Source: Nonlabens ponticola (GTDB taxonomy: Bacteria > Bacteroidota > Bacteroidia > Flavobacteriales > Flavobacteriaceae). Taken from it: a DNA stretch of 32,000 bases. The notes under the pieces were generated by a model. The model did no database searches and was not told the origin of the DNA. It worked only from the letters and a program-made list of their open reading frames with translations. The number at the start of each line of letters is the position of its first letter. Position 1 is the first letter of the stretch. Where the stretch lies: the NCBI RefSeq assembly GCF_003966335.1, contig NZ_CP034549.1, forward strand, positions 2,790,001-2,822,000, written 5' to 3'. Position numbers and translations under genes: made by a program. This document shows positions 18 through 10,797 of this stretch, piece after piece.

Positions 18-560
18 ATGCAAGGACGTGAAAAGGCATATTTTGCCAGCGGTTGCTTCTGGTGCGTCGAGGAGATTTATGAGAGTGTAAAAGGCGTTGA
101 CGAGGCTATTTCTGGGTACAGCGGTGGTACTACCAAAAACCCAACATACGAGCAATCCAATACAGGAAATACTGGTCATGCAGAAGCTAATGAAATTATC
201 TATGATCCAACCGTAGTAAGTTTTGAAACACTAGTCGATGTGTATTTTGCATCCCAGAACATTGAGCAGGTAAACGGACAAGGACCAGATCGTGGCTCGC
301 AATATCGTAGTATCGTGTTTTATCAAAACGATGAACAAAAGAAGATCATCAATGACAAGATCGCTCAACTAGAAGCTGATGGCTACGACGTTGCTGCTGA
401 GGTCAAACCATTCCAGAAATTTTGGGTGGCAGAGGATTATCATCAGGATTATGCAGAACGTAATCCTAGCAACGGATATATTCAAAACGTGTCCATACCT
501 AGATGGAGAAGATTTGCCAAAGAAATGCCTGAAGTGATCAAAGATGGCGTTAGTCATTAA
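18..560 (+). CDS. msrA: peptide-methionine (S)-S-oxide reductase MsrA
   Basis: 180-aa ORF with the N-terminal GCFWC active-site motif and a C-terminal DYHQDY MsrA-type signature. The frame stays open back to base 3, so the true start may lie upstream of the window. Confidence 0.9.
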   Translation: MQGREKAYFASGCFWCVEEIYESVKGVDEAISGYSGGTTKNPTYEQSNTGNTGHAEANEIIYDPTVVSFETLVDVYFASQNIEQVNGQGPDRGSQYRSIVFYQNDEQKKIINDKIAQLEADGYDVAAEVKPFQKFWVAEDYHQDYAERNPSNGYIQNVSIPRWRRFAKEMPEVIKDGVSH

Positions 561-584
561 GCAAGTTTCAATAAATTTTAAAAA

Positions 585-614
585 GGGTTTCAAAATAATT
601 TGAGACCCTTTTTT
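585..614 (+). terminator. intrinsic terminator after msrA
   Basis: GGGTTTCA (585-592) pairs with TGAGACCC (601-608), with one G-U pair. An 8-nt loop is followed by TTTTTT (609-614). Confidence 0.7.
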
Positions 615-709
615 ATCTCAACTCTATTATTGACCGTGGTTCGGCTAATCTTCTAGCATTTGATTATCAATCGTTTCAGCCTTATTTTAAAATAAACTTG
701 GTCAATAAA

Positions 710-717
710 TAATTTTG
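710..717 (+). promoter_or_regulatory. candidate Bacteroidota -7 promoter box (TAATTTTG)
   Basis: Matches the TAnnTTTG consensus, 17 nt upstream of the Asn-leader ATG. No clear -33 TTG at canonical spacing. Confidence 0.35.
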
Positions 718-734
718 CCTACATTTACCACATC

Positions 735-785
735 ATGAAAAACATGAATAATAATAACGAGAATAATAATCCTTTACTAACGTAA
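735..785 (+). CDS. Asn-rich leader peptide (MKNMNNNNENNNPLLT) upstream of asnB
   Basis: 16-codon ORF in which 8 codons are Asn (AAT/AAC). It is followed 30 nt later by a strong terminator and then asnB, which is the classic attenuator layout. Confidence 0.65.
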   Translation: MKNMNNNNENNNPLLT

Positions 786-815
786 GGTAGATCTCGTTGT
801 TTGCAAAAAATCAAA

Positions 816-842
816 AGGTCTACTGTAAAGTAGGCCTTTTTT
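816..842 (+). terminator. attenuator terminator in the asnB leader
   Basis: AGGTCTACT (816-824) pairs with AGTAGGCCT (829-837): a 9-bp stem with one G-U and a GTAA loop. A T-run (837-842) ends 22 nt before the asnB ATG. GTAGATCT (788-795) can pair with 816-823 as an antiterminator. Confidence 0.7.
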
Positions 843-864
843 CATTTAAAAAAACCAACCAACC

Positions 865-2529
865 ATGTGTGGAATTGTAGCAGTATTTGATCTAAAAAAG
901 GAAAGCAGTGATCAGCGGGAAAAAGTTCTAGAGCTTTCAAAAAAACTAAGGCATCGAGGACCAGACTGGTCTGGAATCTATTGTGGTGATAATGCCATTC
1001 TCGCTCATGAGCGATTGACCATTGTTGATCCGCAATCTGGCGGACAACCGTTATACAGTCCAGATGGCAAAATAGTGCTTGCGGTGAATGGTGAGATCTA
1101 CAACCATCAAGAAATTAGAGATCGCTATGCAGCCTCTTATAAATTCAAAACAAAATCTGATTGTGAGGTCATCCTGGCTTTGTATCAAGACAAGGGCATG
1201 GATTTTTTAGATGAGCTTACAGGTATGTATGGATTTGCGCTATACGATAGCGACAAAGATATATTCATGGCGGCGCGTGATCATCAAGGGATTATTCCAT
1301 TGTATTATGGCCGCGACGACATGGGTCAACTGTACATTGCTAGCGAGCTTAAGGCGCTAGAAGGTACCTGCAAGGAAATTGCACCATTCCCACCAGGACA
1401 TTATTATACTAGTACGAGCAATGAATTTGTAAAATGGTATGATCGTGACTGGAAAGAGTACAATGCAGTAAAAGATAATACCAGCAGTGTGGCTGATCTT
1501 AAAAAGGCTATGGAAGATAGCGTTCATAGACACCTGATGAGTGACGTACCTTACGGCGTGCTATTGTCTGGTGGTCTGGATAGCTCTATCGTTAGTGCCG
1601 TTGCAAAAAAATATGCCGCACGACGCGTAGAGTCTGGTGACCATGCAGATGCCTGGTGGCCTCAATTACACTCTTTTGCCATAGGACTTGAAGGCAGTCC
1701 AGATCTAGAGGCCGCACAAGTGGTTGCAGATCATATTGGCACCGTGCATCATAGTGTAAACTTTACAATTCAAGAAGGATTAGACGCGGTAAAAGACGTG
1801 ATCTATTATCTTGAAACCTATGATGTAACCACAGTACGGGCATCAACACCTATGTACTTGCTGGCACGAGTGATCAAGTCAATGGGAATCAAGATGGTCC
1901 TTTCTGGTGAAGGAAGTGACGAGATTTTTGGTGGGTATTTATATTTTCACAAGGCACCTAATGCACAGGAATTTCATAAGGAAACAGTACGCAAACTGGA
2001 CACCTTGCATTTATATGATAACTTGAGAGCTAACAAATCGCTAGCAGCATGGGGAATTGAAGGCCGTGTACCATTTCTGGATAAGGAATTTATGGATGTT
2101 GCCATGCGCTTGAATCCGCAAGATAAAATGTGTGGCAACGGCAAGATGGAGAAACACATTTTGAGAGAAGCATTTGAAGATTATCTACCCAAGAGCGTAG
2201 CCTGGAGACAGAAAGAACAATTTAGTGATGGTGTTGGATACAACTGGATCGACACGCTTAAAGAAACGGTAAACGAGCAGGTCACAGATGAAATAATGGC
2301 GGCAGCAAGTTTCAAATTCAAGATCAATCCACCACAAAACAAGGAAGAATATTACTACCGCAGTATTTTTGAAGGACATTTCCCTAGTGATGCCGCCGCT
2401 AGTTGTGTGCCGTCCATTAAATCTGTGGCTTGTTCAACTCCAGTAGCGTTGGAATGGGATGCGGCATTTAAAAATATGAATGATCCATCTGGTAGAGCTG
2501 TCGCTGGAGTGCACGATGATGGTTATTAA
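865..2529 (+). CDS. asnB: asparagine synthase (glutamine-hydrolysing)
   Basis: 554 aa. N-terminal MCGI supplies the Cys2 nucleophile of class-II amidotransferases. SGGLDSS PP-loop present. Same length class as enterobacterial AsnB. Confidence 0.95.
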   Translation: MCGIVAVFDLKKESSDQREKVLELSKKLRHRGPDWSGIYCGDNAILAHERLTIVDPQSGGQPLYSPDGKIVLAVNGEIYNHQEIRDRYAASYKFKTKSDCEVILALYQDKGMDFLDELTGMYGFALYDSDKDIFMAARDHQGIIPLYYGRDDMGQLYIASELKALEGTCKEIAPFPPGHYYTSTSNEFVKWYDRDWKEYNAVKDNTSSVADLKKAMEDSVHRHLMSDVPYGVLLSGGLDSSIVSAVAKKYAARRVESGDHADAWWPQLHSFAIGLEGSPDLEAAQVVADHIGTVHHSVNFTIQEGLDAVKDVIYYLETYDVTTVRASTPMYLLARVIKSMGIKMVLSGEGSDEIFGGYLYFHKAPNAQEFHKETVRKLDTLHLYDNLRANKSLAAWGIEGRVPFLDKEFMDVAMRLNPQDKMCGNGKMEKHILREAFEDYLPKSVAWRQKEQFSDGVGYNWIDTLKETVNEQVTDEIMAAASFKFKINPPQNKEEYYYRSIFEGHFPSDAAASCVPSIKSVACSTPVALEWDAAFKNMNDPSGRAVAGVHDDGY

Positions 2530-2550
2530 AATGTGGTGAATAATGTTTGC

Positions 2551-2564
2551 GCTTTCGCGAAAGC
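2551..2564. repeat. iterated palindrome GCTTTCGCGAAAGC, copy 1 (intergenic)
   Basis: Exact 14-mer, 21 nt after the asnB stop. Extended palindrome CGCTTTCGCGAAAGCG. Confidence 0.95.
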
Positions 2565-2569
2565 GTAAT

Positions 2570-2577
2570 TATCTTTA
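2570..2577 (+). promoter_or_regulatory. candidate -7 promoter box (TATCTTTA, imperfect)
   Basis: 7/8 match to TAnnTTTG, 7 nt upstream of the trp leader ATG. The his leader shows the same spacing. Confidence 0.25.
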
Positions 2578-2584
2578 CACTTCA

Positions 2585-2638
2585 ATGCAAGAAAGAACTC
2601 AAAACTGGTGGTGGTACAACATAGCTCAACAGCCGTGA
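2585..2638 (+). CDS. trpL: trp operon leader peptide (MQERTQNWWWYNIAQQP)
   Basis: 17-codon ORF with three consecutive TGG codons (2606-2614), followed by a terminator and trpE. Confidence 0.75.
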   Translation: MQERTQNWWWYNIAQQP

Positions 2639-2662
2639 AGTCACCCGTATGTTTAAATACAA

Positions 2663-2689
2663 AGGTCTGCTTTACGGCAGGCCTTTTTT
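2663..2689 (+). terminator. trp attenuator terminator
   Basis: AGGTCTGC (2663-2670) pairs with GCAGGCCT (2677-2684), followed by a T-run (2684-2689). GCCGTGAAG (2632-2640, spanning the leader stop codon) can pair with CTTTACGGC (2670-2678) as an antiterminator. Confidence 0.75.
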
Positions 2690-2721
2690 GTTTTAATCTT
2701 TTATTGCACTAATAAATAATC

Positions 2722-4122
2722 ATGTTCAAACCTATAACAACACATAAAAATATCCTGGCAGACACGTTGACGCCAGTAGGTATTTACATGCGGTTGAGAG
2801 ACAAGTATCCAGGTAGTATTCTATTGGAGAGTAACGAGTACGGCAGTCGCAGCAACAGCTATTCCTTTATTTGTTGTAATCCAGTAGCTAGTCTCAATAT
2901 CGACCAGAATTTCATAAGTATGAGCTATCCAGACGGCAGCTCTCATGAACAAGAATTTGATTTGTCCTATGATCTAGCTCGTGGTCTAGAAAAATTTAAA
3001 GATCAATTCTATAGGGATGATAATGAGTTTTCATTTCCTACTAATGGACTGTTTGGATACCTTACGTATGACGCGGTTCAATTATTTGAAAATATCAAAT
3101 TTGACCCTAGTAAAATTGAAACTGATGCCATACCCATGGTCAACTATCAGGTATTTCAAAATGTATTGGTTTTTGACCACTATCACAATCAGCTATATGT
3201 ATTTGACCATGCATATAATGGTGCAGATTCTAAGATGGAATCACTTGTGGACACGATAGAACATCGCGATATTGCTCGGTACAGTTTCAATACCACGCAA
3301 GCTGAACAGTCAGAGATGCAAGATCAAGATTTTAAAAATCTTGTAGCCAAGGGCAAGCAACATTGTCAGCGTGGTGATGTTTTCCAGATCGTCGTCTCAC
3401 GCAAGTTCTCGCAATCCTATAAGGGCGATGATTTCAATGTCTACAGGCAATTAAGAGCGATCAACCCTAGTCCTTATCTATTCTATTTTGATTACGGGAA
3501 CTTTAGAATATTTGGATCCTCGCCAGAGGCTCAAATATTGATCAATGACGATACTGCCAGCATTCAGCCTATCGCAGGAACCTACAAGCGTACAGGAGAT
3601 GATGCCGCAGATTTGCAAGCAGCAAATGACCTTAAAAAGGATCCTAAAGAAGCAGCAGAACATATCATGCTCGTTGATCTGGCTCGCAATGACCTAAGCA
3701 GACATGCTCGCGATGTACAGGTAACAGATTATCAAAATATTCATTTTTATTCTCATGTAATTCATATGGTGAGTACGGTTACAGGCAAAGTAGCGCAAGA
3801 AGATCGTATGGACTTGATAGGCGACACGTTTCCTGCTGGAACATTGAGCGGTGCGCCTAAATATCGCGCCATGCAATTAATCGATGGTCTAGAAAAAAGC
3901 GCTCGGCAATTTTATGGTGGTGCAATAGGATACTTAGGATTTGACGGTAGCCTTAATCACGCCATCATCATTAGAACTATACTATCACAAAATAATACCA
4001 TGTTTTACCGTGCTGGTGCTGGAGTTGTGGTCGACAGCAATCTGGATAGTGAAAATCAAGAAGTTTATAACAAAACCAACGCTTTAAGAAAAGCTATAGA
4101 ACAAGCAAATGAAACAGTTTAA
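2722..4122 (+). CDS. trpE: anthranilate synthase component I
   Basis: 466 aa. N-terminal LLES Trp-feedback motif. Chorismate-binding C-terminal domain (GTLSGAPK, GGAIGY). Confidence 0.95.
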   Translation: MFKPITTHKNILADTLTPVGIYMRLRDKYPGSILLESNEYGSRSNSYSFICCNPVASLNIDQNFISMSYPDGSSHEQEFDLSYDLARGLEKFKDQFYRDDNEFSFPTNGLFGYLTYDAVQLFENIKFDPSKIETDAIPMVNYQVFQNVLVFDHYHNQLYVFDHAYNGADSKMESLVDTIEHRDIARYSFNTTQAEQSEMQDQDFKNLVAKGKQHCQRGDVFQIVVSRKFSQSYKGDDFNVYRQLRAINPSPYLFYFDYGNFRIFGSSPEAQILINDDTASIQPIAGTYKRTGDDAADLQAANDLKKDPKEAAEHIMLVDLARNDLSRHARDVQVTDYQNIHFYSHVIHMVSTVTGKVAQEDRMDLIGDTFPAGTLSGAPKYRAMQLIDGLEKSARQFYGGAIGYLGFDGSLNHAIIIRTILSQNNTMFYRAGAGVVVDSNLDSENQEVYNKTNALRKAIEQANETV

Positions 4123-9687: not shown

Positions 9688-9695
9688 TACATTTG
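9688..9695 (+). promoter_or_regulatory. candidate -7 promoter box (TACATTTG)
   Basis: Perfect TAnnTTTG match, 7 nt upstream of the his leader ATG. Confidence 0.4.
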
Positions 9696-9702
9696 CACTG
9701 CA

Positions 9703-9750
9703 ATGAATAACAACGCAACACATCACCATCATTTTGACACTTACCTGTAG
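9703..9750 (+). CDS. hisL: his operon leader peptide (MNNNATHHHHFDTYL)
   Basis: 15-codon ORF with four consecutive His codons (9721-9732), followed by a terminator and hisG. Confidence 0.75.
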   Translation: MNNNATHHHHFDTYL

Positions 9751-9790: not shown

Positions 9791-9817
9791 AACCCGTCTA
9801 TTTCAGGCGGGTTTTTG
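9791..9817 (+). terminator. his attenuator terminator
   Basis: CCCGTCT (9793-9799) pairs with AGGCGGG (9805-9811), with one G-U pair, followed by TTTTT. Confidence 0.7.
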
Positions 9818-9924: not shown

Positions 9925-9945
9925 ATGGGGCCAATAATAAAAATT

Positions 9946-10797
9946 ATGATCAGAATAGCAGTACAGAAATCAGGAAGGTTAAGTGACAAGTCGCTACAAT
10001 TATTAAAAGATTGTGGGATCAAATTTGATAACGGGACACGCAAATTGAGCGCTAAAGCAAAGAACTTCCCAATGGAGATTCTTTTCTTGAGAGACGACGA
10101 TATTCCTCAATATGTCGCACAAGGCGTGGCAGATCTTGGAATTCTAGGACTAAATGAGGTCGAAGAGAAAGACCAAAAAGTCGACGTGATCAAGCAGCTA
10201 GGTTTTGCAGGTTGTAGATTGAGTCTTGCCGTTCAGAAAGATGTCAATTACACAGGTCTGGAATGGTTCAACGGCAAGCGTGTGGCGAGTAGTTATACAA
10301 CCATCGTCAAAAAGTTCTTTGCCGATAAAAGCATCAACGCAACCACTGAAGAAATAGGTGGCAGCGTAGAAATCGCTCCAGGAATAGGCCTCGCGGAAGG
10401 AATTTGCGACATCGTTTCGACTGGTTCTACATTGATCATGAACGGATTGAAAGAAGTAGAAACGGTCATGTACAGTGAGGCAGTTCTTATTTCTAATCCA
10501 TCATTAAACGATGAGAAAAAAGAGCTATTGGACAAACTCATGTTCCGCATGGATGCGGTCATGAATGCATCTAAAAACAAATACATCTTGCTGAATGCAC
10601 CTAACGATAAGGTGGATGAGATTTCTGCGCTGTTGCCAGGAATGAAAAGCCCGACGGTATTACCGCTGGCCGAAGAAGGTTGGTGCAGTTTACATTCTGT
10701 TATTGAGGAAAATGATTTTTGGAATGTGATTGATCAGCTCAAGGAAGCTGGCGCTCAAGGTATTTTAGTCAGCCCAATTGAAAAACTAATCGTCTGA
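9946..10797 (+). CDS. hisG: ATP phosphoribosyltransferase, long form
   Basis: The ORF is open from ATG 9925. I prefer ATG 9946 (MIRIAVQKSGRL) because it aligns with the conserved HisG N-terminus and 9925 abuts a hairpin. About 283 aa including the C-terminal regulatory domain. Confidence 0.9.
   Translation: MIRIAVQKSGRLSDKSLQLLKDCGIKFDNGTRKLSAKAKNFPMEILFLRDDDIPQYVAQGVADLGILGLNEVEEKDQKVDVIKQLGFAGCRLSLAVQKDVNYTGLEWFNGKRVASSYTTIVKKFFADKSINATTEEIGGSVEIAPGIGLAEGICDIVSTGSTLIMNGLKEVETVMYSEAVLISNPSLNDEKKELLDKLMFRMDAVMNASKNKYILLNAPNDKVDEISALLPGMKSPTVLPLAEEGWCSLHSVIEENDFWNVIDQLKEAGAQGILVSPIEKLIV

Follow-up and report, generated by a model that had tools for sequence, protein, structure and literature searches.

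We analyzed a 32,000-nucleotide (nt) stretch of the genome of Nonlabens ponticola, a member of the Flavobacteriaceae (Bacteroidota), comprising positions 2,790,001 to 2,822,000 of contig NZ_CP034549.1 and hereafter called the window. Our focus is the short region directly upstream of asnB, the gene for asparagine synthetase B. This region holds a small open reading frame (ORF) dense in asparagine (Asn) codons and, behind it, an intrinsic terminator, and a prediction made earlier from the letters of the sequence (the original prediction) had proposed that the two form an attenuator through which asparagine controls asnB transcription. The coordinates of all features, counted from the first letter of the window, are collected in Table 1.

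An Asn-rich leader ORF and a terminator before asnB

The leader ORF comprises 16 codons, eight of them for Asn (six AAT, two AAC): ATG AAA AAC ATG AAT AAT AAT AAC GAG AAT AAT AAT CCT TTA CTA ACG TAA. The Asn codons occupy 741-743, 747-758 and 762-770, and the last of them is followed by four sense codons (771-782) and then the stop. A 16-codon leader ORF is the type of gene that gene callers will never report, a point of some weight for annotation. In the terminator, a core of GGUCUACU (817-824) is paired with AGUAGGCC (829-836), A/U pairs lengthen the stem to 813-840, and the GUAA loop is of the GNRA type; a terminator scan gave 12 pairs, and folding gave the hairpin an energy of -15.2 kcal/mol. 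From the end of the T-run to the asnB start codon (ATG, 865) there are 22 nt (843-864).

Table 1. Features at the asnB leader and at the related leaders of the window
Feature	Position	Strand	Details
msrA	18-560	+	upstream gene
Intrinsic terminator of msrA	580-614	+	hairpin 580-613, -17.4 kcal/mol, z = -4.8, then T-run
Putative Bacteroidetes sigma-A promoter	697-727	+	motif match; -33 (C)TTG 697-700; -7 box TACATTTA (TAnnTTTR) 720-727
Leader ORF MKNMNNNNENNNPLLT and stop	735-785	+	direct sequence reading; ATG 735, TAA 783-785
Segment 1, 5' strands of predicted anti-antiterminator	753-777	+	minimum-free-energy fold
Segment 2, 3' strands of predicted anti-antiterminator	782-801	+	holds antiterminator core GGUAGAUCU 786-794; alternative partner 816-824
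Intrinsic terminator (segments 3 and 4)	813-842	+	left arm 813-824, GUAA loop 825-828, right arm 829-840, T-run 837-842
asnB, glutamine-hydrolysing asparagine synthetase B, putative regulated gene	865-2529	+	NCBIfam PRK09431, 930 bits, residues 1-554 of 554
trp leader MQERTQNWWWYNIAQQP	2585-2638	+	terminator 2661-2686, before trpE at 2722
his leader MNNNATHHHHFDTYL	9703-9750	+	hairpin and T-run about 9792-9817, before hisG (9925-10797) and hisD

Just past the leader stop, the string GUAGAUCU / GTAGATCT (787-794) is complementary to the left arm of the terminator (816-823), and adding G786·U824 brings this antiterminator helix to 9 base pairs (786-794 with 816-824). The pairing excludes the terminator, and the duplex has an energy of -9.9 kcal/mol, compared with a shuffle mean of -4.1 (p = 0.005). 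The original prediction had named these parts. Its 16-codon ORF with eight Asn codons (735-785) is read directly from the sequence, and its GNRA-looped terminator with a T-run to 842, 22 nt before asnB, is found as described; for the antiterminator, the pairing with 816-823 stands, and the position it gave (788-795) was a 1-nt slip.

One could suppose that nothing more than chance has placed an ordinary terminator, or a hairpin like the repetitive extragenic palindromes, beside an AAT-rich stretch that has no regulatory role. The intergenic regions are AT-rich and most Flavobacteriaceae asnB genes are without the element, as such a juxtaposition would have it. The counts argue otherwise. Among the other ATG-started ORFs of 10-25 codons in the window (246 ORFs, six frames) the maximum is three Asn codons, against eight in the leader, and across loci L001-L088 only 12 of 3032 such small ORFs have at least five, eight of these 12 being asnB leaders. 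The fold of 725-850 has an energy of -31.8 kcal/mol (z = -5.7), and none of 200 shuffles is equally stable. The Asn ORF, the terminator and the antiterminator complementarity exceed chance expectation. Also against mere juxtaposition are the duplex energies, the four-codon spacing and the covariation statistics given below, the retention of the element in at least 15 Nonlabens-type sequences, its recurrence in a distant clade with matching antiterminator/terminator complementarity, and the separate terminator of msrA, and we regard this explanation as very unlikely indeed.

Conservation in Nonlabens and recurrence in a second clade

We gathered the named Nonlabens relatives through the closest AsnB proteins and the contigs encoding them. 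The element is present in all 15 distinct Nonlabens-type asnB loci recovered, whose carriers include N. agnitus, N. antarcticus, strain Hel1_33_55, a Nonlabens sp. (L001), metagenome-assembled genomes (MAGs) and metagenome contigs. The leader ORFs have 13-17 codons with 4-8 Asn and share the consensus M-x-x-NNN-[FI]-R-T-NNN-P-x-x-x-stop. Besides MKNMNNNNENNNPLLT, their peptides are MTNIVNNINSNNSLLT, MLQNNNFRTNNNPSQT, MTNNNNIGNNNSLRM, MLINNNIRTNNNPSLT, MLQNNNFRTINNNPLTM, MSTVNNSNVIFNTSHK, MININNNINFNNSLLR, MSTNNNFRTNNNPSQT (in two loci with different DNA), MLKNNNFRTNHNPLQT, MSINNNFRTNNNP, MLINNNIRTNNNPSRK, MLQNNNFRTNNNPSQM and MIKNNNIRVNNNPLQT. The Asn reading frame is kept despite swaps between AAT and AAC, insertions and deletions come in multiples of 3 nt, and each of the three stop codons (TAA, TAG, TGA) occurs. 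The GTAG of the antiterminator is invariant in the 15 sequences, and the terminator is conserved in all orthologues.

The same layout recurs in three Bacteroidales-like loci. The first is a Bacteroidales MAG (L036), whose AsnB is about 72% identical to that of the window; used as a query, it retrieved four relatives (L209, L210, L211, L212), of which L211 and L212, at 83% identity to L036, carry the element. Their leaders, post-stop segments and terminator arms are MFNHNTLFNNYNPLAD, AGGAAAGC and GGCUUUCCU / AGGAAGGCC in L036; MNNNNANALNNNPMSD, GGAGAGC and GGCUUUCC / GGGAGGCC in L211; and MYLLNNNNLFNYNPFQW, GGGGAAG and GGCUUUCC / GGAGAGCC in L212. In each, the segment at or just past the stop complements the left arm of that locus's own terminator, and none of these terminators is related by sequence to the GGUCUACU / AGUAGGCC of Nonlabens. 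The antiterminator duplexes have energies of -13.0 (L036) and -12.1 kcal/mol (L211), with p <= 0.001. Between the clades, then, all antiterminator and terminator positions differ and the complementarity is retained. A -7-like box lies 19-24 nt upstream of the leader in all three loci.

Beyond these two groups the distribution is patchy. A scan of Bacteroidota contigs with AsnB covered at least 80 loci (71-79% identity) among the matches listed. Of these 80, two have a terminator near asnB, and the same two have the whole element (L001 and L036, both with 16-codon Asn-rich ORFs). As most of the sampled Bacteroidota asnB loci are without it, asnB does not need the element. The original prediction had suggested a conservation check across the Flavobacteriaceae: conservation holds for the 15 Nonlabens loci and for L036, L211 and L212, and the element is not general to the family. 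Where it occurs, its parts occur together. In about 90 loci chosen by AsnB similarity alone, where a terminator had to have three or more G-C pairs and lie no more than about 120 nt before asnB, a GC-containing terminator and an Asn ORF co-occur in 10 loci and are never found one without the other; a weak AT-only hairpin in L002, flagged by a liberal finder, was left out of this count.

We also considered, and rejected, an Asn-rich small ORF of Winogradskyella, MKLNFHILNNKTQINYNLKY, with its relatives (L028, 1404-1466 on the - strand; L041; L059). It is divergent from asnB, lacks a terminator and lies ahead of the gene for an unrelated secreted protein, and is probably a chance product of AT-richness.

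The pattern of conservation bears on a second explanation, in which the region terminates transcription prematurely, either constitutively or under some other control, or is a small RNA (sRNA) gene, with a functional transcript of roughly 110 nt and the Asn ORF as an untranslated, AT-rich by-product. The unit does have its own promoter-like motif and a strong terminator, translation of the ORF is predicted from sequence, which leaves room for an sRNA, and RNAs derived from attenuators can act in trans, as is reported for rnTrpL of Sinorhizobium (PMC7968998). Against it stand the in-frame Asn codons of two clades otherwise unrelated in nucleotide sequence, the indels in multiples of 3 and the synonymous AAT/AAC swaps, and the constant distance of four codons from the last Asn to the stop. 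The window has no second small ORF with more than three Asn codons, asnB leaders make up most of the Asn-rich small ORFs counted above, and the element always lies directly upstream of, and co-oriented with, the gene that makes asparagine. A trans-acting role could add to attenuation and would not replace it. We consider this explanation quite unlikely.

Alternative pairings and the position of the ribosome

In the minimum-free-energy fold, 753-762 pair with 792-801, 767-768 with 788-789 and 772-777 with 782-787. The middle of the leader and its last codons pair in this way with the stop codon and the 16 nt beyond it, and because of this the antiterminator is predicted to be sequestered. As modelled, this long nested hairpin corresponds to the 1:2 helix (anti-antiterminator) of classical attenuators with four segments, an element absent from the original prediction. 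Its nested topology is found in 18 of 18 sequences, with z-scores of the region between -0.8 and -4.7.

On a MAFFT alignment, 83.8% of the cells in the 1:2 pairing are paired, a share that drops to 33-47% if the 3' partners are shifted. Covariation is seen in four pairs, with eight cells altered on both sides, a number that 0 of 500 shuffles reach. MAFFT misregisters the outer 1:2 helix between the window and the majority type of Nonlabens sequences; the count was made on the majority-type register, and the pairs were listed per sequence. Compensatory changes at equivalent positions include CGAG/CUCG, CAGA/UCUG and CAACGU/ACGUUG, and pairs at equal distance from the stop vary among sequences (position +8, for example, is G-C, A-U or C-G). 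From the MAFFT alignment, RNAalifold retrieved no more than the terminator and a small stop-codon hairpin, with no both-side changes. The 1:2 covariation is modest, judged from these sequences. Covariation in the stems was another check that the original prediction had called for: the 1:2 helix has it, in the eight both-side cells, and the terminator and antiterminator do not, being nearly invariant in Nonlabens.

To model the ribosome, the nascent transcript up to the terminator loop was folded for the 18 sequences in three ribosome states, with the ribosome position and the next 12 nt masked in the two states that include a ribosome. Without a ribosome, 15 of the 18 fold into 1:2 and leave the terminator arm single-stranded, which predicts termination. 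A ribosome held with its A-site at the final Asn codon lets the sequence behind the stop pair with the left arm (-5.9 to -16.6 kcal/mol), which predicts read-through; one placed at the stop codon leaves that arm without a partner in all 18, and termination is again predicted. In these models, the central claim of the original prediction, that a ribosome at the stop would mask the antiterminator and a stalled one would free it, is borne out.

In 17 of the 18 sequences, from both clades, the last Asn codon is followed by exactly four sense codons and then the stop. The antiterminator therefore starts immediately past the leading (3') side of a ribosome stalled at Asn, and a ribosome at the stop codon covers it. 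The spacing agrees with a ruler set by the ribosome footprint, and its constancy in two clades without nucleotide similarity seems to us the strongest single argument for a switch set by ribosome position.

Upstream, the leader ATG begins 7 nt past a -7 box. The TA..TTT of this box and the upstream TTG are kept, with their spacing, in 15 of 15 Nonlabens-type sequences, and TAnnTTTG is the Bacteroidetes sigma-A -7 consensus (PMC9723704). The 7-nt spacing from box to start is conserved across the Nonlabens asn leaders and is exactly that of all three leaders in the window: asn (TACATTTA, 720-737), trp (TATCTTTA, 2570-2587) and his (TACATTTG, 9688-9705). Because the starts lie 7 nt after the box, the sequence suggests that the three leader transcripts are leaderless or near-leaderless.

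This arrangement also invites a third explanation, namely an attenuator that senses general translation capacity or some signal other than asparagine (Asp or Gln supply, the queuosine status of tRNA-Asn, or arrest at NNNP), in which the AAU codons serve mainly to keep a leaderless 5' end unstructured. All three leader ORFs of the window have A-rich first codons at this same distance from the box, the his leader even beginning MNNN; AAU, which is read by wobble, dominates the asn leader; and most sequences have a Pro codon after the Asn run. The needs of initiation leave unexplained the second Asn cluster, 9-11 codons into the ORF, with its fixed distance to the stop, and at the corresponding place the trp and his leaders of N. 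ponticola carry WWW and HHHH. The gene regulated, moreover, makes asparagine. As for the Pro codon, a role at the peptide level was considered and rejected: in L001, L082 and L088 it is replaced by Ser (UCU) with the pairing to GG retained, and for this reason we place the constraint at the level of the RNA and not of the peptide. A signal other than asparagine is, in our view, unlikely.

From the sequence elements, their conservation, complementarity and spacing, we infer promoter use, translation of the leader, ribosome stalling and a regulatory outcome that together would make the transcription of asnB depend on how much charged tRNA-Asn is available. Transcription would probably start a few nt before the leader AUG, from the promoter with the -7 box at 720-727, and a ribosome would translate the 16-codon leader as RNA polymerase heads for the terminator. 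With Asn plentiful, the ribosome would reach the stop codon (783-785) and cover roughly 783-797, blocking GGUAGAUCU (786-794); the terminator (813-840 plus T-run) could then form, and transcription would end 22 nt before asnB. On a leader without a ribosome, segment 2 would be held in 1:2 (753-777 with 782-801), which would likewise lead to termination. With Asn-tRNA scarce, the ribosome would stall at the Asn codons, especially those of the second cluster (762-770), and would cover segment 1 with a footprint ending just before the stop codon. Segment 2, left free, would pair with the emerging left arm (816-824), no terminator would form and asnB would be transcribed.

We put the probability that the asnB element is an asparagine-responsive, ribosome-mediated leader-peptide transcription attenuator at roughly 0.8. 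Several observations pull this figure down. The case is a comparative and thermodynamic one throughout. In the folding models without a ribosome, L086, L211 and L212 form the antiterminator instead of 1:2, and in L158 the antiterminator is already thermodynamically favoured in that state. Sequences of the majority Nonlabens type form a weak antiterminator duplex (-5.7 to -6.4 kcal/mol, with p about 0.05-0.12 versus shuffles). Within Nonlabens, the terminator and the GGUAG core of the antiterminator show no covariation on the alignment, which is uninformative there because both are nearly invariant. Seven of the 15 Nonlabens-type sequences, each located before an AsnB start, came from a metagenome scan for the terminator pattern, and this part of the sample is biased by that choice. 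The A-rich codons after the start could partly reflect initiation that is leaderless or proceeds without a Shine-Dalgarno sequence, in keeping with the MNNN of the his leader. Only four Asn codons are left in the leader of L086, and in a metagenome variant (L126, 4288-4462, - strand) a premature stop follows directly on NNNP (MSINNNFRTNNNP) with no change in the RNA elements downstream; this copy of the leader may be in decay or tuned differently. Finally, the element is absent from 78 of the 80 Bacteroidota asnB loci among the matches listed and from L213, the nearest AsnB outside Nonlabens synteny (79% identity); in L209 and L210 the stretch directly before asnB lacks both the Asn ORF and a terminator.

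A more ambitious reading goes further than the asparagine-responsive attenuator itself. It takes Asn-codon leaders to be an unrecognised attenuator class, which arose or was kept in at least two distant Bacteroidota lineages and is built on the four-codon ruler, and the asn, trp and his leaders of Nonlabens to be read from leaderless or near-leaderless transcripts, with ribosomes that load at the nascent 5' end and so keep in step with the polymerase. Such 5'-end loading as a means of synchronising an attenuator would be undescribed so far. We hold this larger reading to be tentative and, on balance, doubtful.

Leader-peptide attenuation is established for Trp, His, Phe, Leu, Thr and Ile/Val, and in actinobacteria for Cys. 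If the attenuator reading is true, asparagine joins the amino acids sensed in this way, and asnB gains its first regulatory mechanism in Bacteroidota, a phylum that departs from the model organisms in its promoters and in the way translation is initiated. At about 110 nt, the element is readily testable by reporters. Its two sequence-unrelated versions of the same geometry would offer a clean system for studying attenuator design set by the ribosome footprint and its repeated evolution.

Neighbouring units, related leaders and known systems

The AsnB of the window is 100% identical to that of Nonlabens ponticola. Upstream, msrA ends in its own terminator (580-614), which indicates that the asnB leader is probably a transcription unit apart from msrA, and a 120-nt spacer separates that terminator from the leader ORF. 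The upstream gene varies, being a same-strand msrA in some Nonlabens and a divergent Nramp-like gene in others (it is divergent in N. agnitus and Hel1_33_55). We therefore rejected the idea that the asnB-leader terminator belongs to msrA: msrA has one of its own, and because the upstream gene is divergent in some species the terminator is not the end of an upstream operon. The gene order asnB, trp leader, trpE is kept throughout Nonlabens (L081-L088; window 865-4122); two amino-acid units, each with its own putative attenuator, therefore stand back to back.

The original prediction had pointed to trp and his attenuators in the same window, and leaders and terminator hairpins are indeed located before trpE and hisG; N. 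ponticola uses the attenuator design for trp and his too. The his hairpin was read from the sequence, the simple terminator scan having no + strand listing there. Against the Rfam Bacteroid-trp model the trp leader scores 30 bits, versus a gathering score of 49, and for this reason the curated model misses Nonlabens at default thresholds. The his leader has, curiously, three Asn codons right after its start.

A separate feature of the window is a 16-nt palindrome, CGCTTTCGCGAAAGCG, with 13 copies (up to 2 mismatches) in 32 kb where shuffles give an expectation of 0. The copies lie at 2550, 5208, 7308, 9662, 11659, 14148, 14418, 16496, 18783, 20960, 23637, 25603 and 31649. The 10 that fall within ORFs are always translated as xLSRKx or xAFAKAx, never in the third phase, and two intergenic ones closely precede the promoters of the trp and his leaders. 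Other Nonlabens loci have exact copies too, and the palindrome is found in loci L081-L088, L101, L103, L126, L135, L157, L158, L165 and L206. It resembles the HIP1-type iterated palindromes.

At the gathering level, Rfam has no match in the whole window except a tRNA, and with E <= 10 the region 560-900 matches only unrelated sRNA models far below threshold, with no T-box and no leader family. No asparagine leader peptide, and no Asn-codon attenuator of an asparagine synthetase, was found in the literature searched (including PMC4833913, PMC7366714 and PMC2965389; subscription-only papers were outside this coverage), in agreement with what the original prediction had supposed. A transcriptome of Flavobacterium psychrophilum predicts ilvE, hisG, trp and aromatic leader peptides, and neither its text nor its supplements hold an asnB or Asn leader (PMC9723704). 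The broad attenuator survey of Naville and Gautheret likewise contains no Asn or asnB case. As the design fits all sequence-level features open to testing and the literature searched gave no precedent, we read the Asn/asnB element of Bacteroidota as an unreported addition to the known class of leader-peptide attenuators.

The closest parallels in design are the enterobacterial leaders trpL, hisL, pheL, thrL, leuL and ivbL/ilvL. Like them, the element has a short ORF rich in codons for the end product and mutually exclusive 1:2, 2:3 (antiterminator) and 3:4 (terminator) pairings, among which the position of the ribosome would select. Unlike them, it concerns asparagine and a single target gene, asnB, in a Bacteroidota host whose initiation is not led by a Shine-Dalgarno sequence. 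The leader here has only 16 codons, in Nonlabens it starts 7 nt past the -7 box and is possibly leaderless, and there is no sequence similarity to the enterobacterial leaders.

Within the phylum, the Bacteroid-trp leader (Rfam RF01692) was reportedly described by Weinberg et al. in 2010. This leader and the predicted ilvE, hisG and aromatic leaders of F. psychrophilum are alike in phylum and presumed mechanism to the element at asnB and differ from it in their amino acids and genes. The trp leader that lies 1.7 kb downstream in the window has a promoter-to-AUG spacing equal to that of the asn leader.

Asparagine-specific control is known in other forms: asnS and asnA of Firmicutes have Asn-specific T-box leaders, and E. 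coli asnA is under the control of AsnC. These systems share the purpose proposed here, which is to raise Asn synthesis or charging when Asn or Asn-tRNA is low. The T-box also shares the choice between a terminator and an antiterminator, but it binds uncharged tRNA directly and needs no translation, whereas AsnC is a protein regulator.

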